From: an uncultured bacterium
GTDB lineage: Bacteria > JAJVIF01 > JAGGVT01
Direction of reading: 5' to 3'
Length of the DNA stretch: 43,124 bases
NCBI GenBank assembly: GCA_965369605.1
Contig: CBDURE010000013.1
Span: forward strand, 1-43,124
This document shows positions 312 to 42,009 of the stretch, in pieces. Position 1 is the first letter of the stretch; every line of letters begins with the position of its first letter. The notes beneath the pieces were generated by a model that ran no database searches, had not been told where the DNA came from, and saw nothing but the letters and a program-made list of their open reading frames with translations. A program made the translations under genes and the position numbers.

Positions 312-3020
312 ATGCCTGAAAAACGGCTATCTTTATTTATTTGTTTTTTTACTGCTTGTTTGATTTTTTCCGGCTGTTCAGGGAGCAATATCTCAACCGC
401 TCCCGGAGTTACAGCCTTTGATTCAACCGATTTAGCGCTGGATGGAGTTTCTGATTTTGATGCAAACGGAAAACCGCTGGCAGGATGCGGATCGCTTGGG
501 TTGTTTGAAATCCACGTGAATGTAGAAACACTGGAGGGGGAAATAACTCCTTTTCGCACAACGGCATCCGCTGATGTTCTTGAGATTGTTGATATAACGA
601 ATTTCCTTCAGGTCGCGCCATGTACCGAGTGTGTGAAACTGCGGTCTATTGCATTGGATTCGGATGAGAATCTGGTGCTTTCAATTGGTATCAAGCATCC
701 ATTCGGTGCAGGTGATGCGGGAGAGCTTATTTCAGGCAGGAATCGCGCTGATTTGCATGTGTTCAATGTCGAGGGGACAATTCTCGCATCGACAGCTAAT
801 GTGGATATTTTTGGCGGATTGAATCAGGGAGTTGGTTCGTTTACGCTGGTCAACGCTGACGGATTAAGCTCATATCTGAATATTCCTCTTCTTCCATTTA
901 CGCTTAATTCGATTCATCCGTACAAGCTTCATTTTGATGACTACTCATCCGGCAATTTTGATGCGAATAATCCAATGGGATTTCAGAGCGTGACAAATCC
1001 CCCGCCGAGCGGAAATCTGGTAATGGCGATGGGGTGCGATTATGACTTTCAGGATTATGTGTTGGATATTGCACCCGGGGATACTTTTGGATTTATATAC
1101 GCGGTTGGATGCACATACGCTGTAAGTACGGCAAGCAGGGATGACAGGTTCAATCCGGAATATCGAATCCCGCAGCATTTGAAAAAAGCGGCTGCGAAAG
1201 TCGTTGTCAGGATTGTGGATAACCAGCTTGAAGCGGGGAATGTATCCAGCGCAGTTGAAATTGAGATAGATATTGTTGACATGAATCATGGTGTCGCGGT
1301 TGGGGATGCGCTTGATGAGATGTTTGCCGACAGTTCTGTCGAATCAATAAAACTGGAAATTCCCGGAATTACAACCAATATCGTGGATGTCGCGCTGGCT
1401 AATATCGGTGGTACGGGGCATAGCGAGCCTGACCCTCTGACTTACGCGGTTACAATCCTGAATGATGCGGCAGGCGGTGAGGGAATATACACAGGGCTTG
1501 TAAAAGTGCGGGATTCGTATGCGCAGGGGTTGAATATATCACCATTATTGGACTCGATGGACGGTATTCAGCGAGTGGAGCCGATTAAGAGTCCGCTTGA
1601 GGGTTTGTTTCCGATATCTGAATTTGCGACCTACCAGAAATTTCAGGTTGAGGTTGTCGGTCATGGCAATGAAATACCGGTAGCGACCCTCCAATCTGAG
1701 CCTGACCCGGTTGTAATAGAAGAGGGTAATTTTGTTACTTTCGATGGCTCCTCATCGTATGATACAGATGGAACAATCACGCTTTATGAATTCGATTATG
1801 ACTGGGATGGCATTGAAGAAAATTTTTCGGCTGATGAGTCCAATATTACTGGAATTGTGATTTCACCCCCCTATATGACCAATGGCAACTACACGGCGGC
1901 TTTGCGTGTTAGCGACGATTATGATCCCAGCGCTGTCGATTATGCAATTGTGCAGGTTACCGTAAATGAATGGGCTGGATGTCCTGATGCTCCCTATGCC
2001 GGGAATATTTTCAACGGGGGATTTACTTTCAGTGCATATCAGGATCATTATGAATTCCTTTTATGGGATGACTTTGCTGATCAGATTATTGACGCGGATA
2101 TATTATCATCAGGCAATGGTGTGGTTATCTATTCGGATAGAACGAGATTCGATGGCGAAATGCGCATTTTTGATCCTGGTTCCGCAACATTTACACCTGT
2201 GGGCGATGATTATCCGGGTGCAATAGGAGTCAGCATTGATATTGATTCCACAGACCTGGTTGTGTTTGTGACATCCACACTATCGCAGGTTATCAATAAC
2301 GCGGGGGATATTCCGCTTGTGAATCGAATTGCAGCATCAAACGATTATTTCACAGTGGTTGACCCGTTTGAAGGAGAGTCAAGTGAACAGATTGTAAATG
2401 TGGGCACAACAATCCAGGCAATAGATATCGACGCTTACGATGATATCTGGGTGCTTGATACGGACAATGTCATGCACAGGTATGATAAAACAAACGGTTA
2501 TACAGAGAGCATGGCAAGACAGTTCGACCTTGACAGTGCGACATCAGGCACGTTTAACGGGTTTGTTTTCGATTTCGTAATTAATTTCCATAACGAGGCT
2601 TTTTTTATATTAACCAATGAAACCGGAAAAGGCGTGTTGTGGCGTTTTGAATGTGACGGCACTTACAATCAGTTGATAAATGGCAATTCTAATCCTTTGG
2701 TTGATGTTTTGGAATATGCCACGGAAAATGATGTGGCTGATATTGGAATCGATAATCTCAATATTGGCGGTAATGTTCTTGATGGCGCGCAGGATTCGCA
2801 GATTGTTGTGGTGGGAGGCTGTCTCTCAACATACTGGTTAACGATGATTAGCAGGATTGACTCCGAATTAAACCAGCATTTTACTTCAGCCATCAGTATG
2901 GGGGACGGGCTGACAAATGTATTCTTCAATCAACGCACTAATATTCTCTGGGGCTGGCAAAGTCACGAGTACAGCGATTCGTTCACAGAAGAATGGCATC
3001 CGCCATCTGATTGGGATTAG
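312..3020 (+). CDS. Large secreted lipoprotein (902 aa), founding member of a paralogous family; C-terminal region with beta-propeller-like YDDIWVLD/NHL-like repeats; function unknown
   Basis: Signal peptide plus lipobox LIFSG-C at N-terminus; RBS aggtga upstream; TAG stop; strong paralogy with 3117-5873 and partial with 6028-7923 and 8136-8543. Confidence 0.75.
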   Translation: MPEKRLSLFICFFTACLIFSGCSGSNISTAPGVTAFDSTDLALDGVSDFDANGKPLAGCGSLGLFEIHVNVETLEGEITPFRTTASADVLEIVDITNFLQVAPCTECVKLRSIALDSDENLVLSIGIKHPFGAGDAGELISGRNRADLHVFNVEGTILASTANVDIFGGLNQGVGSFTLVNADGLSSYLNIPLLPFTLNSIHPYKLHFDDYSSGNFDANNPMGFQSVTNPPPSGNLVMAMGCDYDFQDYVLDIAPGDTFGFIYAVGCTYAVSTASRDDRFNPEYRIPQHLKKAAAKVVVRIVDNQLEAGNVSSAVEIEIDIVDMNHGVAVGDALDEMFADSSVESIKLEIPGITTNIVDVALANIGGTGHSEPDPLTYAVTILNDAAGGEGIYTGLVKVRDSYAQGLNISPLLDSMDGIQRVEPIKSPLEGLFPISEFATYQKFQVEVVGHGNEIPVATLQSEPDPVVIEEGNFVTFDGSSSYDTDGTITLYEFDYDWDGIEENFSADESNITGIVISPPYMTNGNYTAALRVSDDYDPSAVDYAIVQVTVNEWAGCPDAPYAGNIFNGGFTFSAYQDHYEFLLWDDFADQIIDADILSSGNGVVIYSDRTRFDGEMRIFDPGSATFTPVGDDYPGAIGVSIDIDSTDLVVFVTSTLSQVINNAGDIPLVNRIAASNDYFTVVDPFEGESSEQIVNVGTTIQAIDIDAYDDIWVLDTDNVMHRYDKTNGYTESMARQFDLDSATSGTFNGFVFDFVINFHNEAFFILTNETGKGVLWRFECDGTYNQLINGNSNPLVDVLEYATENDVADIGIDNLNIGGNVLDGAQDSQIVVVGGCLSTYWLTMISRIDSELNQHFTSAISMGDGLTNVFFNQRTNILWGWQSHEYSDSFTEEWHPPSDWD

Positions 3021-3116
3021 ATAATATTAAATTGACTAAATATAAGGAATGATGTTTCTTATAACCTATATTAGTTGAACCTATTTAACAATTCAGGTTA
3101 GGGTGGTTGTACTATC

Positions 3117-5873
3117 ATGTGTAATTCACGATTTTGTTTTACATTGCTTGTGATTATCAGTTTGATACTTGTCATTGGCTGTTCAGGGGGGAGCAATCCT
3201 GTTGCTCCTATTGGAGCGCTGGATTCTCAGTCAGTAAGTTACAATTCATTTCCTGTTGGAGTGTCTGATTTGGATGCCGATGGGAATCCGCTGGCAGGAT
3301 ACGGGGCGCTGGGGTTGTTTGAAATACATCTGGATTGCGAATCGCTTACTGGTGATATCCAATCGCTGAGGAAAGCATCGCTGCCGGATGTCCTTGAGGT
3401 GGTTGATATCACGAATTTTCTTCAGGTTGCACCATGTACCGATTGTGCGAGAATCGGCGCGATTTCAGCGGATACCGATGGCAACATAGTTTTATCCATG
3501 GGAATAAAGCATCCGTTTGATGCCGGGAATCCGATGGAACCGATAAGCGGGAAAAATCGCGGCGACCTTCATATATTTAATGTCGAGGGATTGGTTGTAG
3601 TTGACAGCGATGTAACAGTGGATTTTGCGGGAATCAAGGAGCAGGTTGCTGATTTCGATATGATAAACGCGGATGGCTATTCGCCGTATCTGGATGATGC
3701 GCTGGATGGCATCTATCCAACAACCGCGACCATTCATCCGTATAAACTACATTTCGATGATTACTCAGCGGGTAATTTTGATGGCGGCAATCTGATGGGA
3801 TTTGAAAGCGTAACCGACCCGCCGCCGAGTGGGAATCTGGTTATGGCGATGGGATGCGATTATGATTATCAGGACTATATATTCAATCTCGCATCCGGCG
3901 AAACAATCAGATTTATGTTTGCGATTGGGTGCACTTACGCGGTAAGCGCAGATTCGAAATCGCAAAGATTCATGCCTGAATATCGCGTTCCGCAGCATCT
4001 GAAAAAAGCGGCGTGTGAAGTCGCTGTGCGAATTGTTGATAATCAGTTTGAGCCGGGGAATCCATTGAGCACTGCTGATCTGGCAATAGATGTCGTGGAT
4101 GTAAATCACGGTGTCGCGGCTGGCGATGCGCTTAACGAAATGGCTCATGACAGTTCAGTTAGCGGGATTTCGATTGAGATTCCGGGCGTTTTATTCGGCG
4201 TTACCGATGTAACGCTCACAAATACCGGCGGAACAGGTCATGATTCGACTGATCCGCTGACTTATGAAATCACAATCCAGAACGAGGCAGCAGCCGCCGG
4301 GAGCGGATACAGGGGACTTGTCAAGGTTCTTGACGCATATCCGTCCGGCTCGAATACCTTTTTGCCGCTGGGGGATTCCGATGGCATTGAGCGAGTCGAG
4401 CCAAATCAGAATCCGCTGGATGGGCTGTTCGCGATAGATGAATTTGCGACTTACCAGGTATTTTATATTGACGCGAGCGGGCTTTTCAATAATCCGCCGG
4501 TTGCCGACCTTCAGCCCGACCCGATTATTATTCATCAGGGCAATTCGGTTAATTTCGATGGCTCCGCATCGTATGATACTGACGGAACAATTATGCTTTA
4601 TGAATTCGATTTTGACTGAGATGGAATAGAAATCAATTTCGAAGCTGATGACATGAACGGGCATGGTACGCTACTTTCAGATCCCTACGATATTGTGGGA
4701 GATTTCACAGCGGGACTTCGAGTTACCGATGACCAGCTGGCTGTTGGCTATGATTCAGTTCCGGTTACAGTAAATGAACCTTCATCGTGTCCTGATGCGC
4801 CATACGCGGGATACACAATAACGCAGGATTTTATTGACAGCGACGGTGACTTTTTCCATTTCCAGATGATGACCGGATGGCACTGGAAAGCAGGCGTGAT
4901 CTTCGATTCCGATTTCCTTTCCAGCGGTGATGGCATTTGCATCTACTCGCAGGAAGTGGAAGAGGACGGCACATTCGGCGGTGAGTTGAGATACTATGAT
5001 CCGATGGGTGATGAGGGCTGGGGATTCACGGCGGTTGGACCTGACTATCCCGGCGAGCAGGGAGTTTGTGTCGATGTTGACAGCACGGATTTAGTTGCGT
5101 TTGTAACGCTTGGAGACAATTTCTATGAGGCGTTTGGTCCGCCGAGTGAATGGACTCTCAGTGATTATATTAACGAGAGCAATGATTATTTCACGGTTGT
5201 GGATCCTTATGTTGGGCAATCATCTGAAGTGGTTGTCAATGTTGGGACACGAATCAGGGCGATTGATATCGATGGCTATGATGATATCTGGGTGCTTGAT
5301 ATCGACAATGTAATGCACAGGTATGTGAAAGGTACATCTCCTTTGAGTTACACGGAGGATGTTACTCGTCAGTTTGACCTTGATATTGCCACAGGCGGAC
5401 TGTTCACCGGACAGGTTTATGAATTCGTGATTAATTTCCACAATGAGGCTTTCTTCATTCTCACTGATAATACTGCTAAATGTGATTTGTGGCGGTTTGA
5501 ATGTGATGGTGTTTATTACTCCAATATCAATGGCAACGCAAACCCGATGATAGAAGTGCTTGCTGAGGATTGCACCGGAAATGCGGATATAGTCATCGAC
5601 AATCTTGACGCCAGTGGAAATCACCTGACTGGCGCGCAGGATTCACAGATTGTAGTTGTCAGCGGATACAATCCAAGCAACAACTGGCATACGATTATGT
5701 CTCGCGTTGATTCAGAGCTTGACCAGAAACTAACGCATGATGAAAACTGGGATGCGAGCGGAATCCAGACAGCGTATATCGACCAGAGAACCAACGAACT
5801 CTGGGGCTGGCATCGCTCAAACTCTTCTGATTCATGGGCGGAGCGATGGACAGCGCCGTCACAATGGGAGTAA
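3117..5873 (+). pseudogene. Paralog of 312-3020 lipoprotein interrupted by one in-frame TGA (4617-4619) where the paralog has TGG (Trp); otherwise intact in a single frame
   Basis: ORFs 3117-4619 and 4653-5873 are in the same frame; DFD*DG here aligns to DYDWDG of the 312-3020 protein; lipobox VIG-C; could alternatively be a sequencing error. Confidence 0.65.
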
Positions 5874-5917: not shown

Positions 5918-5950
5918 AATAGCAGAGGGTTTTAACCCTCTGCTATTTTT
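5918..5950 (+). terminator. Rho-independent terminator after the second lipoprotein gene
   Basis: aatagcagaggg-tttta-accctctgctatt followed by ttttt. Confidence 0.7.
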
Positions 5951-6027
5951 GCGTATTAGTAATATAAATATCTGTTTGATATAATATCCTTACGTTCTTC
6001 ACAAATCATATATGGAGCGTGTTTGAC

Positions 6028-7977: not shown

Positions 7978-8009
7978 CCGAGCCCCGAACGTAAGAGCTT
8001 GTCGGGAAA
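7978..8009. repeat. Right copy of the 32-bp inverted repeat (partner 58-89)
   Basis: ccgagccccgaacgtaagagcttgtcgggaaa = reverse complement of 58-89 with 1 mismatch. Confidence 0.8.
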
Positions 8010-8031
8010 GGCAAGTAGAACCAGAAACATT

Positions 8032-8079: not shown

Positions 8080-8135
8080 GTTTTTCTTGTTCTTCTGATC
8101 TTTCCCGGCTTGATGGTTCATCCGGGAATGTTGGT

Positions 8136-8543
8136 TTGGTAAATGCGGATGGCTATTCCGCATATCTTGACGATGTCCTTGATGAAATATATCCAACTGA
8201 TGCGACAGTGCATCCCTACATTTTGCATTTTGATGATTATTCAGTTGGCAATTATGATGTGTCAAATCCGATGGGATTTGAAAGTGTAACCAACCCGCCG
8301 CCGAGCGGTAATCTTGTAATGGCGATGGGATGCGATTATGACGTGCAGGATTATAAATTCAACATGGACAGCATTACGGATATCCGCGCAATGCCTGAAG
8401 TTGAAATCCCAGCCTGTCTTGGCGCTGGTCGCAGGTTCGCGCATAACCATGTCGATTTCAACGGCGATATGCATGTGGTTTACGAGGATGGCACACTGGG
8501 ACGATGGACGAATCTTGAGATTGGGTATGTGAAATATTATTAG
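8136..8543 (+). pseudogene. Truncated fragment of the lipoprotein family (only the central ~75 aa, ADGYS.YLDD...HFDDYS.GN.D..NPMGF.SVT.PPPSGNLVMAMGCDYD.QDY, is homologous), lying just outside the right inverted repeat
   Basis: About 80% nucleotide identity over about 230 bp to 3660-3890; no N-terminal signal or lipobox, 3' part unrelated. Confidence 0.6.
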
Positions 8544-10590: not shown

Positions 10591-10742
10591 CCTCACCCCC
10601 CAGCCCCCTCTCCACCATGTGGAGATGGGGAGCAGGAAAACGCTATGCGGAGATGGGGAGCAGGGAAACGCTATGCGGAGAGTGAAGGGTAAGAGTAATC
10701 TTACTCCCTTCTCCTGATGCAGGAGAGGGGCTGGGGGTGAGG
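10591..10742. repeat. MITE-like element family 1: terminal inverted repeats cctcaccccc.gcccctctcc / ggagaggggctgggggtgagg enclosing about 110 bp that contains a 30-bp tandem duplication
   Basis: TIRs read directly; internal tandem repeat atggggagcagg(g)aaaacgctatgcggag x2; same TIRs at 16285-16384, 17940-17985, 39171-39305. Confidence 0.7.
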
Positions 10743-10918
10743 TTCTTTAAGCCAGATAAAAAGCGACAGTTCCCTTTTGGAGTATTCTCAGTTATTTCTG
10801 TTTTCACCGGACAGTAGTGATTTGCGAAATGAATCGATAAAATTGTATAATTTGCACGGTTGGAGGGACTTGCCTGAATAGGCGTTTTTTTGTTTTATTC
10901 ATAGGAGATTTACTGAAT

Positions 10919-11858: not shown

Positions 11859-12869
11859 TTATAATTCAAGAATCTCATCCCGGCTGATTAACACACTTTC
11901 AGGTAAATCCAAAGTGCCGTTTAACAGTTTTTCTGTTGAGTAGTAATATACTTTGCCCGTCAATTTATCCCAGTTTTCTTCTGCGTCAAGAACGGAACCG
12001 GAACCTACAGGGGAAATTATTTTCATATTACTTGCTCCCTCAATTCCTCTGTCTCTGAAACGTTTTCCCAACGGCTCATCTGTACAATCAAAAAACTTAA
12101 CAGGCTTGTTGTCAAGATAAGCTAATCCACATTCCACAAAACATGGAATCTCACGGTCAGCTGAAATAAAATGCGGCGCCATGTTTTCCTCAATCCAGTA
12201 ATAATTACCCACCAATGCCTCTTCAATAGACGCAGGCGCATTGCCAACTCTCCAGTATTCACCCCTGAAAAAAGCGCCCCAGCAAATATTCCGCATAACC
12301 TGGAAAAAATCATTCTCAGAAACTCTATCCGGGTTTATCTCCTGATCATAATAATAATTAATCACATCAGGAGCTACCTGCGGATTTGGGTACTTATATA
12401 TGATGTAATCATCTATCTCATAGAATACAATCTCAAAATATGCCACATCATCAGATTCACGTATATACGCGATTTTGCCAATATCCAACTGGCGTGGTTC
12501 CAGCTTGTCAGAAACAGGTTTAAGCGGTTCTCCGTTTAAGGGGTTTGAGGGCCAGATAAAACACAATTCTGAAAATAGGAATTCTTTCAAATCATAAGGA
12601 TAACGACCATTAATATAATGGAATTGGAGTAGTGGGGCAATGAAAGCTCCAGAACCGACAGGGCTGAGAATACCGCCGGGAAAATCTTTGTCTGTTTCCC
12701 TGGCAACTTCAGATGCACGTAAATTGTACGGAGTTTGTCCGCTCGATAAATCTCTTTGAGCATCAACTGCGCTTGTGTTGCTGTAACTCGTTATTGTTCC
12801 AGCCCAAAAAATGCAAAGGCAAATCACTACGATTTTAGAAAAAAATTTCATCTTTGAGCTCCTTGTCAT
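11859..12869 (-). CDS. Secreted hypothetical protein (336 aa); about 92% identical over mature region to 19499-20536 product
   Basis: N-terminal signal peptide; near-identical blocks (ILSPVGSGAFIAPLLQFHYINGRYPYDLKEFL...) shared with inverted paralog; even the overlapping antisense ORFs are identical. Confidence 0.7.
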   Translation of the reverse strand: MTRSSKMKFFSKIVVICLCIFWAGTITSYSNTSAVDAQRDLSSGQTPYNLRASEVARETDKDFPGGILSPVGSGAFIAPLLQFHYINGRYPYDLKEFLFSELCFIWPSNPLNGEPLKPVSDKLEPRQLDIGKIAYIRESDDVAYFEIVFYEIDDYIIYKYPNPQVAPDVINYYYDQEINPDRVSENDFFQVMRNICWGAFFRGEYWRVGNAPASIEEALVGNYYWIEENMAPHFISADREIPCFVECGLAYLDNKPVKFFDCTDEPLGKRFRDRGIEGASNMKIISPVGSGSVLDAEENWDKLTGKVYYYSTEKLLNGTLDLPESVLISRDEILEL

Positions 12870-16270: not shown

Positions 16271-16284
16271 GGCTTACTATATGA

Positions 16285-16384
16285 CCTCACCCCTGACCCC
16301 TCTCCTGCATCCGGCGAGGGGAGAAAGCATAGTGCTTTTCTGTTCCCCCTCTCCTGATGCAGGAGAGGGGGCTAGGGGGTGAGG
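16285..16384. repeat. MITE-like family 1 copy (paired TIRs cctcacccc...ggggtgagg)
   Basis: gacctcacccctgacccctctcctgcatccggcgagggg ... cccctctcctgatgcaggagagggggctagggggtgagg. Confidence 0.7.
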
Positions 16385-16442
16385 TTTGATTAAAGCAATA
16401 CGGTATTTAGGTCTGAACTTAAAATGCAGGAAGGACAAAAAG

Positions 16443-17927: not shown

Positions 17928-17939
17928 TTGTAATAATGG

Positions 17940-17985
17940 CCTCACCCCCGGCCCCTCTCCTGCATCAGGAGAGGGGAGAAAGAGG
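17940..17985. repeat. MITE-like family 1 solo end forming hairpin cccctctcctgcatcaggagagggg, immediately after tolC-like stop (terminator-like)
   Basis: cctcacccccggcccctctcctgcatcaggagaggggag. Confidence 0.6.
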
Positions 17986-19498: not shown

Positions 19499-20536
19499 AT
19501 GAAAATACTTTCAAAAATCACAATGATTTTCATTCTTGTGTTTTTTACTATTGCGATGACAGGATGCGGGAATTCAAGCAAGGATAAAGAACCGAACACA
19601 ATACAAGATAATCTGAACATCAATAACAATGACAATGTAAGAGATTTATCGTTTGATCAAACTCCATACAGTTTGCGTTCATCAAAGGTTGCCAAAGAGA
19701 TAGACAAAGATTTTCCCGGTGGTATTCTCAGCCCCGTCGGTTCTGGCGCTTTTATTGCCCCATTGCTCCAATTCCATTATATTAATGGGCGTTATCCTTA
19801 TGATTTAAAAGAATTCTTATATTCAGGGTTATGTTTTATCTGGCCCTCAAATCCCTTGAACGGAGAACCGCTTAAACCTGTTTCCGACAAGTTGGAACCA
19901 TGCCAGTCGGATATTGGCAAAATCGCGTATGTACGTGCATCTGATGATGAGGCATATTTTGAAATTGTATTCTATGAAATAGATGATTACATCATATATA
20001 AGTATCCAAATCCGGAGGTATCTCCTGATATGATTAATTATTATTATGATCAGGAGATAAACCCGGATAGAGTTGACGAGAATGATTTTTTCCAGGTTAT
20101 GCGGAATATTTGCTGGGGCGCTTTTTTCAGGGGTGAATACTGGAGAGTTGGCAATGCGCCTGCGTCTATTGAAGAGGCATTGGTGGGTAATTATTACTGG
20201 ATTGAGGAAAACATGGCGCCGCATTTTATTTCAGCTGACCGTGAGATTCCATGTTTTGTGGAATGTGGATTAGCCTATCTTGACAACAAGCCTGTTAAAT
20301 TTTTTGAGGTTACAAGGGAACTTTTGGAAAAACGTTTCAAAGACAGGGGGTTGGAAGGAGCAAGTAATAAAAAAATTATTTCCCCTGTAGGTTCTGGTTC
20401 CGTGCTTAACGCAGATGAAAACTGGGACCGACTGACGGGTAAAGTATATTACTATTCAACAACAAAACTGTTAAACGGCACTTTGGACCTACCTGAAAGC
20501 GTGTTAATCAGCCGGGATGAAATTCTTGGGTTGTAA
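19499..20536 (+). CDS. Secreted lipoprotein, inverted paralog of 11859-12869
   Basis: RBS aggag plus ATG at 19499; lipobox MTG-C; upstream 40 bp also similar to upstream of the paralog. Confidence 0.7.
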   Translation: MKILSKITMIFILVFFTIAMTGCGNSSKDKEPNTIQDNLNINNNDNVRDLSFDQTPYSLRSSKVAKEIDKDFPGGILSPVGSGAFIAPLLQFHYINGRYPYDLKEFLYSGLCFIWPSNPLNGEPLKPVSDKLEPCQSDIGKIAYVRASDDEAYFEIVFYEIDDYIIYKYPNPEVSPDMINYYYDQEINPDRVDENDFFQVMRNICWGAFFRGEYWRVGNAPASIEEALVGNYYWIEENMAPHFISADREIPCFVECGLAYLDNKPVKFFEVTRELLEKRFKDRGLEGASNKKIISPVGSGSVLNADENWDRLTGKVYYYSTTKLLNGTLDLPESVLISRDEILGL

Positions 20537-23120: not shown

Positions 23121-24239
23121 TTATTTTTTAAATACACATGAATTAAGTTTATCTATATATGTGTCACTGAAACTTGAGCCGGAGAAGAAGACAACGCCAT
23201 CAGCGTTTTCCTCTCTTGAGATGATTATCTGTTGCTCAAGTTCTTCAGGAGTATTCTTGTTATGTGATGTGCTGACCGCTATCCCGGGATAAACAAGGCA
23301 TTTGCCTTTAGCGACTTCAACAGCGCGATTAGTGTATTTTCTAAAAACGTCGTGGTTGCTTGTGTAAATCATCGGGCAGATGATGTCGATGATTCCCTCA
23401 TCGACCCAGCCCTTCCAGTCCTGTCCGATAAGGAGTTTCGCCGATTCGTGGTCGGGAAAAACCGCAGCCGATAGTGGGATGTCTTTTCCTGATTTTTTGA
23501 TTGAATCCTTGATTCCTCTAACAAGAGTGGTTACATGATTCGCGTTCCATCTAAGCCATTCGCACCATTCTGAACTTCCGCAGTTATGCCATCTCAGTTC
23601 GAGAGGAGTTACGCCGTATTCTTTTTTGAAAGCGTTAATAGTGGCGTCATCATAGCTGAATCCCTGGCTGGTCTGGAAACGGATGCCATCCAGCTGGATG
23701 CCGTCGATGTCATATTCATAAGCGGTTGCGATTTCAGCGATAATGAAATCGCGAACATCCTTGATTGCTAAATTCAGTTTTGGGCTTATTTCCTTTATGG
23801 TTTTCATCAACCATTCGGGATGCTCCTCGACTGTTTTTTCCCATCCGGGATAAATGTGGCTTGGGCAGATGCATGGATGGACTTTGATGTTTTTCGCGTG
23901 AGCTTCTTTGAGCAAGACATCAAGGAAATCCCAGTCCATCTTGTGCTGCCATTTCAGCACTGAAAAAGCGAAGAGGTCTGTGATTCCGATTTGCGCATAT
24001 TTAATGAAAAGCTCCTGCATCTCAATTTGCGCTTTTTCTTTCTCTTTTGAGAATTGTCGGGTTGATATCCACAACGCTCGCGCTTCGTTGTGTGATACGC
24101 TTTGATGCTGACGCATTGAAATGACAGAAGTTTTAATATTCTTAGAGCTTTCTTTAGCAACAAGCTGCGCGGGGTGAAGGCAAATCAGGAGTAGAATCCC
24201 GATTGCGAGTATTCCTGTAAATGCTTTGTACTGCATCAC
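23121..24239 (-). CDS. Secreted glycoside-hydrolase-like family 10 (GHL10/DUF187-type TIM-barrel) protein
   Basis: Signal peptide; motif YDIDGIQLDGIRF typical of GHL10; paralog of 29695-30762. Confidence 0.55.
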   Translation of the reverse strand: MMQYKAFTGILAIGILLLICLHPAQLVAKESSKNIKTSVISMRQHQSVSHNEARALWISTRQFSKEKEKAQIEMQELFIKYAQIGITDLFAFSVLKWQHKMDWDFLDVLLKEAHAKNIKVHPCICPSHIYPGWEKTVEEHPEWLMKTIKEISPKLNLAIKDVRDFIIAEIATAYEYDIDGIQLDGIRFQTSQGFSYDDATINAFKKEYGVTPLELRWHNCGSSEWCEWLRWNANHVTTLVRGIKDSIKKSGKDIPLSAAVFPDHESAKLLIGQDWKGWVDEGIIDIICPMIYTSNHDVFRKYTNRAVEVAKGKCLVYPGIAVSTSHNKNTPEELEQQIIISREENADGVVFFSGSSFSDTYIDKLNSCVFKK

Positions 24240-24312
24240 AAGTCCTTTTTATGGTGACCCGAAAGTCACGAATTTATTTGGATTAACGACTTTTTATCAA
24301 ATGCAAGACTTC

Positions 24313-24840
24313 TTAAATTAATTCGTAATTATACAGGTTTTCATCCGTTGCCACAACTTTACGCGCGAAATTGTCTTTCATGATGGTTTCGTAATCGTGG
24401 CCGACATCCGCTCGGCAGATTGACAGGAACACCAGATTTGTATCTGATACATTCACGACTCTGTGGCCGAATCCCGGTGGTGAATATACATGGCTGTTGG
24501 GAGTTAATTCGTGTGATTCGAATTTGTCGCTTCTGTCCTGAATGAGCGCAAGGCCTTTTCCCTCAAGCCCCATGATTGATTCGGCTGCATCAGGAGCGTT
24601 ATGGAAATGCCCTTTTGTGAAATAGAATTCGTTGCCTACTCTTCCGGGAAATAGAATAGTCGTGCCGATGATGAGATTATCGCTATCGGATGGCACGGGG
24701 AGGGCGTAGACCTCGTAGATGACGGGGTCGTTTTTTGAGAGGATTTCCTCGACCGCTTTTTGGTCGGCGAATAGCGATTTGATATCGCTTAGCTTGCGGA
24801 TTATTTTGTCGCCGTATGGTTTTGTTATGTCTGGTATCAT
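24313..24840 (-). CDS. Cupin-type glucose-6-phosphate isomerase (archaeal-type cPGI)
   Basis: TKGHFH...E metal-binding motif and PPGFGHRVVN motif characteristic of cupin PGI. Confidence 0.6.
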   Translation of the reverse strand: MIPDITKPYGDKIIRKLSDIKSLFADQKAVEEILSKNDPVIYEVYALPVPSDSDNLIIGTTILFPGRVGNEFYFTKGHFHNAPDAAESIMGLEGKGLALIQDRSDKFESHELTPNSHVYSPPGFGHRVVNVSDTNLVFLSICRADVGHDYETIMKDNFARKVVATDENLYNYELI

Positions 24841-24856
24841 GAGTTCACCTTAATTT

Positions 24857-24924
24857 CCCCGGCATGCCTGATTCACCTTATAGAAAATTGATGATTTTGT
24901 TCGGGACGGCATGACCGGGTTACG
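24857..24924. repeat. MITE-like family 2 copy (ccccggcatgcctgattcacct...ttcgggacggcatgaccgggttacg); followed by a separate 21-bp-arm hairpin at 24934-25008
   Basis: Same about 68-bp unit occurs at 29567-29633 (same strand) and 29479-29545 (inverted). Confidence 0.7.
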
Positions 24925-25067
24925 ATTTTTCTGCCCAGGAGCTTCGGCAACCTTGCCGTAAAGGCGCTGAAGCCCCCTACTTTCCGGCAAGGATGCCGAA
25001 GCTCCCGGTGAGTGTTGTTTTTTTACTTGCTAACCTGCTAACTTACTAACCTACTAACTTTCTTTTC

Positions 25068-27326
25068 CTATTTCAGTTCTTCGTAGCCCTTGATTATCTG
25101 GCATGCCGCTCTCATGAATGATGAGCCTTTTGCGAGGGCGTATTCGCTGGTTCGGTATGCGTATGTCCAGCCCCAGACATCGGTGTCGATTACCGGATAG
25201 TCGATAGGGACATCCGCGACTACCCATTGCTTGGTGTCCAGATCGCCGAGTTCAAGGAGTTCGCCTTTGCCTGAATAGATTCCAAGAGTAATTCCGCCGG
25301 GAACGATGCCATCCTCACAGCCTTTCATGAAACAGTATCGAGTGTGATAGCAATTCGGGCCTTGTCCGACATCAGCCATCATTGAGACATCGGCGGGATT
25401 GAATCCGAGAATCCATTGCAGCTGATATTCCGCAGCTTCGAGATATTCAAGATTTTTGCAGAGACGGCCTGCTGTTGCGAGTCCGAATGCGGTTTCGCCG
25501 AATCTTCCGTTGTTTGTGTCGGGGACTATGTTTCTAATCGTACCGTCATCCAGTTTTCCTCCGACTTGTCCGAATGGTGAGAGGTAGGCGTACTGCATCA
25601 TGTTGTCAGCCCATGCGGCAAAACAATCTGCGATTTCCGGTGTAAGTTCGCTTTTGGGATATCGATTGGCGAATTCATACAGTGCCGGCATGTGATATCC
25701 GGGACGCAAGGTTGTTTTCTCTTTTAACGAGTCTGTGTAGAAACTGCCATCATCGAGCTGAAGATCAATAATCGCTTTGACTCTGGCTTCAGCATCGGTG
25801 AAATATTTCCTTTCTCCTGTGATTTCGTATAATTCCAGATTGTTGAGCAGAAGTCCTGATTGTGTGTAATACAAATCCGGGTTGTCTGCAAGTATTTTAC
25901 TGGAGCGTTCGTAGGTATCCATCGCGACTTCGATACATTTATCAGAAAGATTTTTGTTGTATGGCATTAGCTGTCTTCCTATCCTTGCGAGCAGCGCGCC
26001 TGTTGTGCCGATTGCGGCTTCTTTAGTGATTCCGTAGTTGTATTTAACGCAGTCGGATTCATACACCACACGCGGCGCTTCATTTTCAGGGGTTGCAAGC
26101 CATGTGCAGACATCCTCGAAATCGGGTGTGAAACTGGCATGAAATCCGCCATCCCAGTATGATCTGCAGAAATAATCGGCTTCCCATGCGGCTTCGTTTA
26201 TAAATCGAGGCATACCGTCGAGTTGCTCATCGAGAATATCGCCGAATTCATCCTGGAAAGTTGTAAGGGCGTTTATTCCCATAGTTCCGCCCCAGATCCA
26301 TTTACCGTAATCGCCGGCATCGTGCCATCCGCCAGCGACATCGACACGGGTGCCGTCCAGTTTGACGATTGTATCGCCGGTATGGCAGGCTTTGTGGAAT
26401 CCGGGAACCTCAGTTCCGCATCGTTGATAGCGGAACCATCGCGCGGCTTTTTTTGTCAGTTCGAGATAATGGTCTTTTCTGATTGGGAACGTGTGTGAAT
26501 CGACAACCTCTTTGGTTTCATCGATAATCAGCCGGACTCTGTATAGGCCGGGTGTTTTGAAATCGGAGAAATCCGCGATGTAGTTATTGCCGCCCCAGAT
26601 ATGGAATCCGGTTTTCTTTAGTTTTCCTTTGTAAACAACAGGTTGTGGAAAGGGATGCTGCCTGTTGTGGAGTGAATCTATCAGTTCAAAATGCCCTGTC
26701 AGTTTTGAGTTGTTAGCCCATACTACAGCGGTTTTTACGCTTTTAACATCGTATCCGGCGTGGCAGATTATCGGCTTGAGTGTTTTCTGCGCGATTATCT
26801 GTCCGTCGGCAAGTTCGGACCAAGTGTCGATTTGTTGGCGGATTCGTCGAATCGTCCGCGCCTGTTTCATCTTGTCATCCATTGAGAGTTCGCTGCGGTT
26901 TCTTAGTTTTCGCGATGTTACATGAAATTCCAGTATTTTCGGATGACTGGCGACCTCAACATCCAAAGTCATGGTTTCCTGCGCGTATTCATAATCGACT
27001 TCCTTCTTCTTGCCGGTGGCTGTATCAATCAAAATCGGCATACCTTTAATGAGGAAATAAATCGGGTCGAATTTGAGTTGTGTTTTTATGGTTTTGGAGG
27101 AGGGAGCGTCCATTTGGAAGATGATTCTTAATTTCACGTCGTTTTGGTACGCTGCGACTTCCCATGATGTTCCCTTTATTCCAAGTGAAACGGGAATATC
27201 ATCGCGAAGTATCCAGCCTTCATCCTCGTCGAAAAAGTCACTGAATGTTTTGTCCTGTGCAAGTCCAGCGCTTGTCAGAAATGCGAATAATAATGCTGTA
27301 ATTGTTACAAACCTGAGAACTTTCAT
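25068..27326 (-). CDS. Secreted glycoside hydrolase family 9 endoglucanase with N-terminal Ig-like (CelD_N-type) domain
   Basis: Signal peptide; GH9 signature DVAGGWHDAGDYGKW; paralog of 30985-33267. Confidence 0.8.
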   Translation of the reverse strand: MKVLRFVTITALLFAFLTSAGLAQDKTFSDFFDEDEGWILRDDIPVSLGIKGTSWEVAAYQNDVKLRIIFQMDAPSSKTIKTQLKFDPIYFLIKGMPILIDTATGKKKEVDYEYAQETMTLDVEVASHPKILEFHVTSRKLRNRSELSMDDKMKQARTIRRIRQQIDTWSELADGQIIAQKTLKPIICHAGYDVKSVKTAVVWANNSKLTGHFELIDSLHNRQHPFPQPVVYKGKLKKTGFHIWGGNNYIADFSDFKTPGLYRVRLIIDETKEVVDSHTFPIRKDHYLELTKKAARWFRYQRCGTEVPGFHKACHTGDTIVKLDGTRVDVAGGWHDAGDYGKWIWGGTMGINALTTFQDEFGDILDEQLDGMPRFINEAAWEADYFCRSYWDGGFHASFTPDFEDVCTWLATPENEAPRVVYESDCVKYNYGITKEAAIGTTGALLARIGRQLMPYNKNLSDKCIEVAMDTYERSSKILADNPDLYYTQSGLLLNNLELYEITGERKYFTDAEARVKAIIDLQLDDGSFYTDSLKEKTTLRPGYHMPALYEFANRYPKSELTPEIADCFAAWADNMMQYAYLSPFGQVGGKLDDGTIRNIVPDTNNGRFGETAFGLATAGRLCKNLEYLEAAEYQLQWILGFNPADVSMMADVGQGPNCYHTRYCFMKGCEDGIVPGGITLGIYSGKGELLELGDLDTKQWVVADVPIDYPVIDTDVWGWTYAYRTSEYALAKGSSFMRAACQIIKGYEELK

Positions 27327-29694: not shown

Positions 29695-30762
29695 TTATTC
29701 TTTGAAAACGCTTTCTCTTAATGCTTCGAGAAATTCGTCGGTTATATGCGTCGCGAAGAAAAACACGATTCCGTCCGCGTTTTCCTCTCTCGATATGGCG
29801 ACCTGTTCTACAACTTCATCAGGTGTGCTATGGCTATGGCCTTTGATTTGAATTCCGGCGGTAACGAGACATTTGCCTTTGCCAACATCCATAGCGGCTT
29901 GAGTATATTTACGGAAAACGTTAGGATTTTTTGTGTACAGCATGGGGCAAATCATATCGACGATTCCCTCATCAACCCATGCCTGCCAATCCTGCCCAAT
30001 TAGAAGTTTTGCCGATTCGTGATCGGGAAAAACCGCGACAGACAGTGGAATATCCTTGCCGGACTTTTTGATGGTGGCTTTGACATCGCGGACATAACTT
30101 GTTACACGATCCGCGTTCCATCTGCACCACTCGCACCAGATAACACTTCCGCTGTTGAGCCATCTCAATTCCATCGGGTCTTTGCCGAATTCATCCTTGA
30201 ACTCCTTCAGAGTAACATCATCGTAACTGTATCCCTGGTGAGTCTGGTAGCGGATTCCATCGAGTTGGATGCCGTCAACGTCATACTCCAGCGCTTCCGT
30301 AATTTTACTCAGCGCGAGTTCCTTTGCACCTTCGGCAGGGAAATTCAGCCAGATATTATCCTCGTTCATGTTTTTCATAATCCATTCGGGATGCTCGTCC
30401 AATTGTTCCTGCCATTCCGGGAACATGTTATCGGGGCAACAGATTGCATGGACTTTCATGTTTCTTGAGTGAGCCTCATCAATCAAAACCTGCAGGAAAT
30501 CATAATCCTTGTTGTGCTGGCATTTCAGAATGGAGAAACAGTAGAGGTTATTGATTCCGATTGAATCGAGAGTATCGAGCATTTTCCTGATTCCTGCCAG
30601 CCCTTTGTCTGTGTCGCTGTCGAACGATGAGGAAGACATCCAGACACCGCGAATTTCATCGGCTTTCGGTTGAATTGATGCTTGTGCAGCGCCTGTTTGG
30701 TTGATGCATAAAACAAGCAGGAGGGCGAGCATCAGAGTTTTGGTGATTGTTGTGAATTTCAT
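29695..30762 (-). CDS. Secreted GHL10-like protein, paralog of 23121-24239
   Basis: Signal peptide; YDVDGIQLDGIRY motif; collinear similarity to the other copy. Confidence 0.55.
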   Translation of the reverse strand: MKFTTITKTLMLALLLVLCINQTGAAQASIQPKADEIRGVWMSSSSFDSDTDKGLAGIRKMLDTLDSIGINNLYCFSILKCQHNKDYDFLQVLIDEAHSRNMKVHAICCPDNMFPEWQEQLDEHPEWIMKNMNEDNIWLNFPAEGAKELALSKITEALEYDVDGIQLDGIRYQTHQGYSYDDVTLKEFKDEFGKDPMELRWLNSGSVIWCEWCRWNADRVTSYVRDVKATIKKSGKDIPLSVAVFPDHESAKLLIGQDWQAWVDEGIVDMICPMLYTKNPNVFRKYTQAAMDVGKGKCLVTAGIQIKGHSHSTPDEVVEQVAISREENADGIVFFFATHITDEFLEALRESVFKE

Positions 30763-30780
30763 GGTTTACTCTCCTTAAGA

Positions 30781-30980
30781 TGGATTCCGGGTCAAGCCCG
30801 GAATGACATTAAATGCAATGATGATATATTGTCATTCTGAACTTGATTCAGAATCCATCTTTTTCCGGTAATGGGATGGATTCCGGGTCAAGCCCGGAAT
30901 GACATAAAATGCAATCCCGGAATGCCATTGAACGCCTATAATGGCTATTGAATGTCTGGAATGACATTAAATGTAATCGC
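30781..30980. repeat. Cluster of REP-like hairpins: two tandem 37-bp units ggattccgggtcaagcccggaatgacat(t/a)aaatgcaat plus a gtcattctgaa...ttcagaatcc hairpin and partial third unit
   Basis: Units at 30783-30819 and 30878-30914 read directly; same gtcattcc/ggaatgac core as the other REP-like copies. Confidence 0.7.
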
Positions 30981-30984
30981 GGAT

Positions 30985-33267
30985 TTAGGGATTCAATCTC
31001 CGCATTGCTTTTTCAATCTGTGTTGTGCCCAGTACGAACCATGCGCTGTTTCGCGCCCAGTATTCGTTGCTGGAATAGACGTAAGTCCATCCGCGGACAT
31101 CGCAGTCGATTATCGGATAGTCCACAGGGACATCGGCAAGCACAATGTTTTTAGTGTCAGTATCGCCAAGATAGAATGGCTCGCCGGTTCCACATTTGAT
31201 TCCGTTTAGTATTCCGCCGGGTACGATGCCATCCACGCAGCTTTCCATGAAACAGTAGCGGTGATGGAAACATCCGGGACCGAATCCGACTCCAGCCATC
31301 ATTGAAATATCGGGTGCATTGAATCCGGTAATCCACTGGATTTGATGTTCCGCAGCTTCGAGATATTTGGGTTCATCGCACAGGATTGCAGCTGTTGCCA
31401 GTCCCCATGCGAATGCGCTGATACGTCTGTTGCCATGCTCGTATCTCATATTCAGCAGTTTGCCGTCTTTATTCACGCCGCCAACCAGTCCGAAATTATT
31501 CATGTTTGTGAAATTCATAGTGAGGTCAGCCCAGCGTTTGAAAGCCTGTTTTATTTTAACGTTCAGACTGCTGTCTGGATTCTGCTTGAAGAAATCATAC
31601 AGTGCGAGCATGTGGAATCGGCATTCGACATACTTATCCGATGTTCTTGCTTCATCGAAATAGAAACTGCCATCCTCAGCCTGAAGCGCGAGGAGATTTT
31701 CTGTAAATGCAAGAGCATCTTTTTGATATTTTTCATCGTTGGTTACTTGATAGAGGTCGATTGCCGACTTTAAAAGTCCGGCTTGAATCCAGAGGTATGA
31801 ATTTTGCTTTTTCTCGTATTCCGGTTTTGACAAATCGACGGCTTTGTCCAGCTCATAGACCTCTTTTGCAACTGAGATGCACCGGTCGCTGAGTTTTTTG
31901 TCATAGGGCATAACCTGCCGTCCGACTTTTGCAGCGGCTGCGCCCATGTGGCTGATTCCAGGTCCGCGTGAACCGCCATAATAGTTGTTTTCAAGCATTT
32001 CCGCTATGGTGACAATTCTGGGCGATTCTTTTTCAGGAGCGCCGAGCCATGTGCAGACATCCTCGAAATCCGCGGTGAATCCGGCGTGAAACTTGCCATC
32101 CCAATAGCCTTTGCACAGATATTCCGCTCCCCATGCGGCTTCGTCAAGGACGTCAGGTTTTGCGGTTCGGTTGCTGACGAACTCATCGCCGAGTTCATCC
32201 TGCAGATTTGCCAGCGCGATAATGCTGATTGTGGTAGGTCCAATCCATTTGCCGTAATCGCCGGCATCATGCCATCCGCCGGTAACATCGACTTTCGTGC
32301 CGTCAAGTTTGATAACCGTATCCTGCATGTGGCAGGCTTTGTGGAATCCCGGAATCTCCATGCCGCATCGCTGGTAGTAATACCAATCCGCCGCTTTCTT
32401 TGAAAGTTCGCGATACAGATTTTTCTTGATGGGGAAAACCTCTGAATCGACAACCTCTTTTGTTTCGTTCACTCGGAGCCTGAGATAATATAAACCGGGC
32501 GTTTTGAAATCGGAGAAATCAGCGATGTAGTTGTTTCCGCCCCAGATATGGAATCCGGTATATTTAAACTGTCCCGTATAGATAACCGGCTGCGGTGCGG
32601 GATGCTGCCTGTTACGGGTGGCATCCAGCAGCTCGAATGTGCCTGAAAGATTCTTTGAGTTTGCCCAGATTACCGCTGTTTTTGTGCCGTTGATATCATA
32701 ACCGGCGTGGCAGATGATCGGCTTGAGTGTTTTCTGTGCGATAATCTGTCCGCTTGCCAGTTTGGACCAGCTGTCGATTTGCGGACGGATTCGCCTTAGT
32801 GTCCTTGCTTGTTTGATTCTATCCTCGGTTGTGAGTTCGCCTCTATTCCCAAGCCTTCGCGATGTCGCTTTCATCTCAAGGATTTTGGGGTAGTCTGTTA
32901 CTTCCACATTGTAAATCATTTTGTCGTTTATGAATTTGTAACCAATCTCTTTCTCTTTTCCGGTTTTCGTGTCAATCACAACCGGCATGCCTCTCATGAG
33001 GAAATAGACAGGGTCAAATTCAAGAGTTGTTTTCACAGGTTTGGAGGGGGATTTATCGAGCTGGAAAATCACTCTTAGCATTACGTCATTTTGGTAGAGT
33101 GCCGCGCTCCATTTTATCCCGTCGATGTCGAGAGTAACCGGGATGTCATCGCGTAATGTCCATGCATCATCGAGGATATCGCCCGATTTTTCCTGCGTGG
33201 CGATTGTCGCTCCTGTCAGCATCAGTAAAACCAAAATACCAATCAGTATCATTCTCAGAGTTCTCAT
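30985..33267 (-). CDS. Secreted GH9 endoglucanase with N-terminal Ig-like domain, paralog of 25068-27326
   Basis: VTGGWHDAGDYGKW signature; signal peptide. Confidence 0.8.
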   Translation of the reverse strand: MRTLRMILIGILVLLMLTGATIATQEKSGDILDDAWTLRDDIPVTLDIDGIKWSAALYQNDVMLRVIFQLDKSPSKPVKTTLEFDPVYFLMRGMPVVIDTKTGKEKEIGYKFINDKMIYNVEVTDYPKILEMKATSRRLGNRGELTTEDRIKQARTLRRIRPQIDSWSKLASGQIIAQKTLKPIICHAGYDINGTKTAVIWANSKNLSGTFELLDATRNRQHPAPQPVIYTGQFKYTGFHIWGGNNYIADFSDFKTPGLYYLRLRVNETKEVVDSEVFPIKKNLYRELSKKAADWYYYQRCGMEIPGFHKACHMQDTVIKLDGTKVDVTGGWHDAGDYGKWIGPTTISIIALANLQDELGDEFVSNRTAKPDVLDEAAWGAEYLCKGYWDGKFHAGFTADFEDVCTWLGAPEKESPRIVTIAEMLENNYYGGSRGPGISHMGAAAAKVGRQVMPYDKKLSDRCISVAKEVYELDKAVDLSKPEYEKKQNSYLWIQAGLLKSAIDLYQVTNDEKYQKDALAFTENLLALQAEDGSFYFDEARTSDKYVECRFHMLALYDFFKQNPDSSLNVKIKQAFKRWADLTMNFTNMNNFGLVGGVNKDGKLLNMRYEHGNRRISAFAWGLATAAILCDEPKYLEAAEHQIQWITGFNAPDISMMAGVGFGPGCFHHRYCFMESCVDGIVPGGILNGIKCGTGEPFYLGDTDTKNIVLADVPVDYPIIDCDVRGWTYVYSSNEYWARNSAWFVLGTTQIEKAMRRLNP

Positions 33268-38566: not shown

Positions 38567-38605
38567 TAATCCAGCTTAAAAGGTGAATATCCTTCTAACC
38601 TCTCT

Positions 38606-38700
38606 AATCCTCGTCCTCTTCCTTATCCGATTTGCGGCGGTCTATTATTTTTTGGGCCGCTTCGTGGCCTGCTTCGTCGTAGTGGCTGAACTCGATTTCG
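38606..38700. repeat. 95-bp direct repeat A: degenerate duplicate (5 mismatches) of the last about 95 nt, including the stop, of the EF-G-like gene; partner B at 39310-39405
   Basis: taatcctcGtcctcttccttatccgatttgcggcggtcT... vs taatcctcAtcctcttccttatccgatttgcggcggtcG... Confidence 0.8.
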
Positions 38701-38801: not shown

Positions 38802-39275
38802 ATGGATAAGTATTCAGAAGGCAGTCGAGCGGAAAATCACAGCAAACGAAGGAAACTGCGGCGGGAATCCACTGTTGCTGAAAAGAATCTGTGGGAAAGG
38901 CTTCGGAACAGGAATCTTAGCTACAAATTCCGCCGCCAGCATAATGTTGGCTATTACATCGCTGATTTCTATTGTGCAAGATTGATGCTTGCTGTTGAAA
39001 TTGATGGCGGCATACATTTGCAAAGGGATCATCTTGAGTATGATAAAGAGCGGGACAGGATTTTTCGATCAAAAGGTGTGAGGGTGTTAAGGTTTACCAA
39101 TGATAGAGTTATGAATGAAATGGATAAAGTATGTGATGAGATTGTTGCTGTGTGTGATGAAATGGGAAGACCTCACCCCCCGGCCCCCTCTCCACCTGTT
39201 TTGTCCACGGACAAGGTTTACACATTGTCAGGGACATGGTTTACACATGTCAAGGGTAATAATGGTACCCCCTAG
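38802..39275 (+). CDS. DUF559 (Vsr-like / restriction-endonuclease-fold) protein; C-terminal 30 aa are read-through into the MITE
   Basis: Conserved DUF559 pattern ...AEKNLWERLRNR...KFRRQHNVGYYIADFYC...LAVEIDGGIH...VLRFTN; tail PHPPAPSPP encoded by cctcaccccccggccccctctcc. Confidence 0.6.
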   Translation: MDKYSEGSRAENHSKRRKLRRESTVAEKNLWERLRNRNLSYKFRRQHNVGYYIADFYCARLMLAVEIDGGIHLQRDHLEYDKERDRIFRSKGVRVLRFTNDRVMNEMDKVCDEIVAVCDEMGRPHPPAPSPPVLSTDKVYTLSGTWFTHVKGNNGTP

Positions 39276-39305
39276 GGGGTTGCAGGAGAGGGGTCGGGGG
39301 TGAGG
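39171..39305. repeat. MITE-like family 1 copy with paired TIRs
   Basis: cctcaccccccggccccctctccacc ... ggagaggggtcgggggtgagg. Confidence 0.7.
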
Positions 39306-39308
39306 TTA

Positions 39309-41390: not shown

Positions 41391-42009
41391 TAATATAATT
41401 CTCCTTGAAATACCCAACGCGCAGCTAGCCAAAAAATGACACCCATGCATGGATGCCAACGCAAAGCAAGAATCATATCAAAATGGAGGGTGAAATACAA
41501 ACAGGAAAGGTGAAATTCTCGTGGCGGAGAGACGCAACGCGCTGCGCCCCTACATAAGTCCGACATAAAACGCGAAAATGGAATTTCATATACCAGAGAG
41601 GATTATTTGAAATACCGAAATTTTGAAGATGTTGGTTATAATGCGGTTTTGCGCATGATTGAATGTGCATACAAGGTGAGCGTTTGATATATGAAATAAA
41701 TAATTTCAGATTAGTGATTAAAATTACCATGTAAAGTGATTTGAAATACCGCTATGCGCAATGGGTTGAGCGGAATAATATAGCCAGTATTTCACGGATG
41801 GCATAATATATTCTACGCGATTACGGACGCCTGCTTGGAGCGGCCTGATTATATCAGCAATGCATCATGAGTTGTTGCGGGCGGTATAAAATAAGTCGAT
41901 AAAGCCATATTCTATTGCTGCAAAGGTATAATATATATCTGCCAAACGGTTGTGCCGTTATGCCGTTTCTATTGCATATTTTATTCCGCCGTGATATAAT
42001 AATCTAACT

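Follow-up and report, generated by a model that had tools for sequence, protein, structure and literature searches.

A probable recent nonsense mutation in one member of a multi-copy lipoprotein gene family of an uncultured bacterium

Young pseudogenes that carry a single lesion are a general phenomenon in bacteria. Here we describe a probable case, the gene p2 (positions 3117 to 5873, plus strand), found in a 43,124-bp stretch of DNA from an uncultured bacterium (GenBank assembly GCA_965369605.1, contig CBDURE010000013.1; the whole stretch is referred to below as the window). The frame of p2 comprises 918 codons, one of which is an in-frame TGA at the position of a conserved tryptophan. Like other young pseudogenes, p2 contains one disabling substitution, which is lineage specific, and is a redundant member of a paralogous family, and its relatives display other lesions or a deletion. 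The differences from such genes are not essential: the family of p2 is uncharacterized, and its source is known from metagenome assemblies alone.

p2 also shares features with several other described systems. It contains a PKD domain, as do extracellular proteins such as clostridial collagenase and KIAA0319L (PF18911/PF00801), and the match of this domain exceeds the curated cut-off. The tryptophan lost from p2 is that of the W-D-x-G motif of the domain, which is shared by the lipoprotein family to which p2 belongs. Unlike described PKD-domain proteins, these lipoproteins possess an N-terminal module (N-module) with no detectable relative in Pfam, NCBIfam, or PDB sequences, and their architecture is not that of a described family. 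Variable surface lipoprotein families with on/off switching include Vlp and Vsa of mycoplasmas, which likewise comprise many paralogous lipoprotein genes with fast-evolving exposed domains and some copies that are off. The lesion of p2, however, is associated with neither a repeat tract nor an inverted promoter nor a cassette for recombination and belongs with ordinary point mutations and indels. An in-frame TGA aligned with tryptophan further recalls the codes in which UGA specifies tryptophan or glycine (translation tables 4 and 25), whereas about one-third of the genes in the window end in TGA and only one TGA lies in frame. Finally, near-cognate suppression of UGA in Escherichia coli by Trp-tRNA(Trp) in competition with release factor 2 is outlined in PMC10570021, which cites Engelberg-Kulka 1981. 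The UGA of p2 would have arisen from UGG, so that misreading would insert tryptophan and restore the ancestral protein; p2 displays no sign of raised or selected readthrough and no stimulatory context or structure, and its stop is unconserved.

The interrupted frame and the lost tryptophan codon

According to the list of open reading frames (ORFs), the upstream portion of p2 is an ORF of 500 amino acids that starts with the ATG at 3117 and ends with the TGA at 4617 to 4619 (3117 to 4619, plus strand). The stop, read directly in the sequence, occupies the codon of residue 501; positions 4611 to 4625 are tttgacTGAgatgga, with tttgacTGAg spanning 4611 to 4620. Past the TGA, the frame is open for 417 further codons until the TAA at 5871 to 5873. 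The second listed ORF, of 406 amino acids (4653 to 5873, plus strand), is the part of the same frame that begins with the first ATG after the stop, the distance between 3117 and 4653 being divisible by 3. The TGA is the sole interruption of the 918-codon frame, and a scan of the entire window revealed no other stop within a real gene that is flanked on both sides by at least 100 open codons. The openness of the frame is not an effect of base composition, since the other two frames of this stretch contain 41 and 83 stops.

The intact paralog p1, which served as the reference, lies upstream of p2 (312 to 3020, plus strand) and encodes 902 amino acids; its product is identical to the protein P0009. 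When tryptophan was restored at the stop, the 918-residue p2 product aligned with p1 from end to end at 55% identity and also aligned end to end, on both sides of the stop, with homologues of 900 amino acids. The original prediction, that the downstream ORF continues the frame and that its C terminus matches that of the paralog, was thereby confirmed over the full length of both proteins. The stop column of p2 corresponds to the W of ...LYEFDYDWDGIE... (YEFDYDWDG) in p1, where the codon is TGG (1803 to 1805); the restored p2 peptide across the stop is ...EFDFDWDGIEINFEADDMNGHGTLLSDPYDIVGDFTAGLR.

The TGA differs from TGG by a G-to-A change at 4619. All of the ten closest copies with a PKD domain, namely, p1 of the window and the copies in the related loci L001, L003, L015, L017, L018, and L019, have TGG in this column, mostly inside gacTGGgatgg, which bears out the claim of a single G-to-A lesion at a tryptophan codon. 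Among 106 aligned homologues, the column is occupied by tryptophan in 66, by tyrosine in 19, and by leucine in 14 but never by cysteine, and no relative has a conserved stop there. Judged from these alignments, the ancestral codon at 4617 to 4619 appears to be TGG, changed by one G-to-A transition.

The lesion is probably recent, as p2 contains no second disabling change. With a transition/transversion ratio of 2, a stop is created by 3.3% of the possible substitutions in p2. Allowing for 0.05 to 0.2 indels per substitution, the lack of a second lesion in 2,754 nucleotides (nt) places the stop within approximately 0.5 to 1.3% of neutral divergence (95% bound). This is an age at the level of strains.

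We consider it probable that a recent and real G-to-A mutation (TGG to TGA at 4619) truncated this one member of a multi-copy surface lipoprotein family. Translation would then end after residue 500, halfway through the PKD linker domain. The resulting lipid-anchored protein would retain the N-module and half of the PKD domain but lack the beta-propeller, and the 1.25 kb beyond the stop would be translated only to the extent that UGA is misread. Such a product is presumably nonfunctional or reduced in function. In a dispensable and fast-evolving slot, the allele could represent an early stage of neutral decay or, alternatively, a loss of function at the level of the strain.

The ATG at 4653 lies 34 nt past the stop and is not preceded by a Shine-Dalgarno-like motif (upstream bases aatttcgaagctgatgac); such motifs do precede p1 (AGGTGA), p2 (GGGTGG), and the third gene of the cluster (TGGAG). 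A product initiated at 4653 would comprise the second half of the PKD domain and the propeller but no signal peptide. Since both the motif and the signal peptide are missing, useful independent expression of the C-terminal half is unlikely. The gene is followed by a terminator-like hairpin, read in the sequence at 5921 to 5952 (plus strand), which consists of AGCAGAGGG, the loop TTTTAA, and CCCTCTGCT and is followed by ATTTTT. A consensus scan did not list this hairpin.

For annotation, the value of this result is that the deposited proteins of 500 and 406 amino acids are two halves of one 918-codon gene. The allele itself is of small importance, being one more nonsense allele in a redundant gene.

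The lipoprotein family and its second slot in relatives

The upstream ORF of p2 encodes a signal peptide with a lipobox and the entire N-module and extends through half of the PKD domain. Lipoboxes were sought as [LVI][ASTVI][GAS]C after an N-terminal hydrophobic segment; read by eye, they are LVIGC in p2 (...SLILVIGCSGG, with Cys22 at 3180 to 3182) and FSGC in p1 (...CLIFSGCSGS). Residues G21, C22, and S23 are nearly invariant across the family. The PKD domain of p2 (residues 458 to 543, positions 4488 to 4745, plus strand) was delimited with PF18911 after restoration of the tryptophan. It scored 38.3 bits in the restored p2 and 34.1 bits in p1, against a cut-off of 27 bits. The truncated 500-residue ORF alone scored 26.6 bits, below the cut-off, with residues 458 to 500 matching positions 1 to 42 of the 85-position PKD_4 profile. 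The stop cuts the domain in two near profile position 42. A family profile matched solved PKD domains, and the PKD domain was the sole domain of p1 and p2 recognized by sequence. Searches of Pfam, NCBIfam, and PDB sequences gave no match for the N-module, which comprises about 450 amino acids. In an AlphaFold model of p1 (mean predicted local distance difference test score, 77.7), the N-module is rich in beta structure and of uneven confidence; it is accompanied by the PKD domain and by a confidently modeled C-terminal beta-propeller, for which Foldseek returned WD40-type propellers. From the N terminus to the C terminus, the family is built of a lipobox, the N-module, a PKD domain, and a beta-propeller, and this architecture is not that of a described family.

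A family search returned 275 proteins, most of which share just the N-module and the PKD domain, approximately 60% of the query. Their C-terminal domains vary and include Kelch, PQQ-type, and BNR propellers as well as beta-helices. When GTDB species-representative genomes were scanned with two family peptide patterns, 15 loci were found, all from one related metagenome-assembled genome, "bacterium isolate AUK107." These loci contain at least 19 copies of the family. Twenty-two of the 24 other family copies that we examined were intact. One further member, P0072, was called as a protein of 571 amino acids and is in fact a longer gene with a lone in-frame TAG (L020, 5419 to 5421). The column of this TAG is variable, with N, H, or Y in homologues, and the contig has about 3x coverage, which makes an error plausible. 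Because this TAG does not stand at a tryptophan column, there is no recurrent pattern of TGA at tryptophan in the family.

A relic of a third family member was found 2 kb downstream of p2 by tblastn and six-frame reading. It is an internal fragment of 99 amino acids (8097 to 8393, plus strand) that is 66% identical to residues 169 to 267 of p2, has nonhomologous flanks, and is embedded in an otherwise unrelated ORF of 135 amino acids (8136 to 8543).

We compared the second slot of the cluster, that of p2, among three related loci. In L001, from an ENA metagenome, a p1 ortholog (87% nucleotide identity to p1 of the window and 98 to 100% identity to that of AUK107) is followed directly by the homologue of the third gene of the window, so that the p2 slot is empty. 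L017, from a JGI metagenome (sample 3300042089), has a p1 with 83% amino acid identity and an intact second-slot gene, the N-module of which is 70% identical to that of p2. The whole PKD domain of this counterpart has been removed by an in-frame deletion at approximately 5113 to 5132. Because its N-module is joined straight to the propeller, it shows that the PKD linker can be dispensed with in this family. In L018, from a Logan assembly (SRR31636559), p1 has 68% amino acid identity, and the second-slot gene is split by a 1-nt deletion at approximately 3031 to 3034, where CAGAGT-TAACG is found and CAGAGTGTAACG is expected. This deletion lies outside any homopolymer, and the repaired frame is otherwise free of stops. 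The lesions in the relatives are thus of different kinds and at different sites.

The N-modules of the three second-slot genes are 67 to 78% identical to one another and 56 to 60% identical to those of the p1 group, and they cluster together. Their propellers are 45 to 47% identical to one another versus 68 to 94% within the p1 group. Between the window and L017, the number of synonymous substitutions per synonymous site was 1.27 for the N-module of p2 and 0.31 for p1, and the ratio of nonsynonymous to synonymous rates (omega) was 0.18 and 0.30, respectively. Synonymous sites are saturated in the p2 comparisons, and omega is to be read there only as a sign of past purifying selection and of a divergence much deeper than that of p1. 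The second-slot genes were thus formerly under purifying selection and have diverged far more than the neighboring p1, which fits rapid evolution or exchange of the exposed domain. The slot itself is presumably dispensable.

A further possibility, which we regard as quite unlikely, is that loss-of-function alleles at the second slot have been repeatedly favored, for example, as an escape from a phage or predator for which the protein serves as a receptor. Selection of this kind would account for the nonsense mutation of p2, the loss of a single nucleotide in L018, and the absence of the gene from L001. The change from TGG to TGA would in that event be a soft knock-down, with misreading of UGA by tRNA(Trp) giving a low level of the exact wild-type protein.

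Some members of the family, p2 included, evolve fast and are repeatedly lost. The part that may be worth study is this uncharacterized and strongly expanded lipoprotein family of an uncultured lineage, rather than the stop codon.

Mutation, error, and other readings of the stop

The A at 4619 is, in our estimate, highly probably real when all readings with a real base are counted together. Substitution errors in short-read consensus sequences are rare. A real mutation is favored because only about 3% of such errors would produce a stop, because no other gene in the 43-kb window is damaged, and because the counterparts of p2 itself have been lost or broken in relatives. The original prediction had listed a recent real mutation among several options, and the independent deletion, shortening, and frameshifting of the positional counterparts now place it first.

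Several observations weigh against a real mutation. The A was read from the assembly consensus, and a fully intact remainder of the gene would be equally expected from a sequencing error or from a functional gene with readthrough. Exact patterns of 47 nt with N at 4619 gave no matches in collections of metagenome and genome contigs, so that no second copy of the strain with either allele was found there. The 500- and 406-residue products are recorded separately under NCBI, ENA, and Logan; an independent Logan assembly of the reads would support the A, but the listing is weak evidence, as only one contig was counted and it may not represent such an assembly. Finally, assembly errors could also account for the lesions in L018, which is a Logan contig, and in L020, with its 3x coverage. 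Two further searches were negative: the 500-residue fragment retrieved no related locus from metagenome contigs, and no contig records encoding the products of the window were found.

A less likely alternative to a young nonsense allele is a base error. The organism would then have TGG and an intact 918-residue gene, the A resulting from base calling, low coverage, or strain mixing. The otherwise perfect state of p2 is what such an error would leave, the change is one substitution, the contig was assembled from a metagenome, as were those of its relatives, and a lone in-frame stop also interrupts a second member of the family, on a contig with 3x coverage. We nevertheless regard an error as unlikely. 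Besides the small fraction of substitutions that yield a stop, the undamaged state of the other genes, and the losses in relatives, the two split products are listed identically by three sources, none of which has the joined product; the 918-residue version with tryptophan was absent from the collection. For a lipoprotein gene that is redundant and evolves fast, a young nonsense allele would be ordinary biology.

The mutation could also be real and the gene alive, either because the 500-residue N-module product works alone or because misreading of UGA turns the stop into a strong down-tuner. The part of the protein that is conserved in the family, the N-module, lies entirely before the stop, and the PKD domain can be spared, as in L017. 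Tryptophan inserted by misreading would be the exact ancestral residue, and the base after the stop is G, as opposed to T after six of the eight other TGA stops in the window (A follows the remaining two). This G is explained as the remnant of the former TGG-GAT. The family yielded no natural short form, however; the one candidate, P0072, has an in-frame stop of its own. The half PKD domain is likely unfolded, no stimulatory structure follows the stop, and no relative has conserved it, and we find this reading improbable. Ordinary leakiness of UGA would restore normal p2 protein at a low level. Nothing indicates that this leakiness is under selection.

Reversible phase variation of a variable surface protein appears very improbable, although p2 belongs to a multi-copy, fast-evolving surface lipoprotein family with other inactivated members and its gene cluster is enclosed by an inverted repeat of 33 nt. 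The substitution affects a single base of unique sequence (tttgacTGAgatgga), where neither a homopolymer nor a short tandem repeat is present, and the lesions in the relatives differ from it in kind and site. Distances of 4.5 kb and 3.4 kb separate the stop from the arms of the inverted repeat, and inversion between them would leave the codon unchanged. A phase-off state, which had also been proposed, is unsupported, as the lesion site has neither a repeat tract nor an invertible element, and we rejected p2 as a phase-variable gene because the lesion lies in unique sequence and the sole nearby inverted repeat is kilobases away.

The repeat itself consists of arms at 57 to 89 and 7978 to 8010, which are 97% complementary and enclose p1, p2, and the third gene. 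The two arms are only approximately 165 nt apart in L001 (7501 to 7535 and 7700 to 7781), where they lie upstream of recJ. Because the contig starts inside this element, the element may mark a breakpoint of rearrangement or be a repeat that is dispersed in the genome.

The meaning of TGA in the window was evaluated from stop usage. The 29 long ORFs end in TAA (12), TGA (9), or TAG (8). TGA ends eight long ORFs other than that of p2, in agreement with the earlier statement that it is a genuine stop elsewhere in the window, and readthrough would add just 0 to 15 codons to seven of them. The eighth has 116 open codons beyond its stop, antisense to a gene relic. Genes of normal length that end in TGA encode, among others, an HlyD-type adaptor, an ABC ATPase, a TolC-type protein, a proline dehydrogenase, and a sodium:solute symporter. 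The ABC ORF (end at 15065) overlaps the ORF of the MacB-type permease (start at 15062) by four bases. Since TGA ends eight other genes, the genetic code of the window is standard.

No recoding signals were detected. The window contains no tRNA genes and hence encodes no suppressor tRNA. Rfam gave no match at the gathering score in the window and none at an E value of 10 or less around the stop. The 101 nt around and after the stop folded like shuffled sequences (z = 0.10), the corresponding stretch of the paralog serving as the control; the lack of a stem-loop 3' of the TGA that had been noted by eye agrees with this value.

Three candidate forms of recoding were rejected on these grounds. Reassignment of TGA (translation table 4 or 25) conflicts with the stop usage, the readthrough lengths, and the single in-frame TGA and is effectively refuted. 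A selenoprotein is unsupported, given the folding result, the absence of an Rfam match, and the absence of cysteine at the column. Programmed readthrough, another of the options originally put forward, is unsupported because the stop is not conserved in orthologs and no structure follows it.

Taken together as programmed recoding, in which TGA would specify tryptophan or glycine, encode selenocysteine, or signal readthrough, these readings are barely conceivable: the stop does sit on a tryptophan column, as a UGA-to-Trp code would give, and bacterial tRNA(Trp) variants that read UGA have been described (PMC13092985), but eight other genes end at the expected length by TGA, the window has many TGG codons and just one TGA in frame within a gene, neither a tRNA, an Rfam match, nor a stable fold was found, and homologues have W, Y, or L at the column but never cysteine.

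Other features of the window

The window is an ordinary chromosomal stretch of an outer-membrane bacterium, with genes for YchF, elongation factor G (EF-G), NAD kinase, a MacAB-TolC system, and GH9 enzymes. An inverted repeat of 898 nt (11859 to 12756 and 19639 to 20536; 90% identical) is formed by two opposite copies of a gene without a Pfam match (336 and 394 amino acids). Between the two copies lie the MacAB-TolC operon and a Band 7 gene, as would be seen in something like a composite element. A direct repeat of 96 nt (38605 to 38700 and 39310 to 39405; 95% identical) reflects duplication of the 3' end of the EF-G gene (39309 to 41459, minus strand) 705 nt away. GC-rich palindromic intergenic elements (CCTCACCCC...CCCCTCTCCTGCATCAGGAGAGGGG), similar to repetitive extragenic palindromic (REP) elements, are present at several gene ends (10591 to 10747, 16281 to 16387, 17934 to 17983, and 39269 to 39311). 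Genes for a GHL10-like hydrolase and a GH9 cellulase-like enzyme occur as a duplicated pair (23121 to 27326 and 29695 to 33267), with 71 to 79% nucleotide identity over the repeated stretches.

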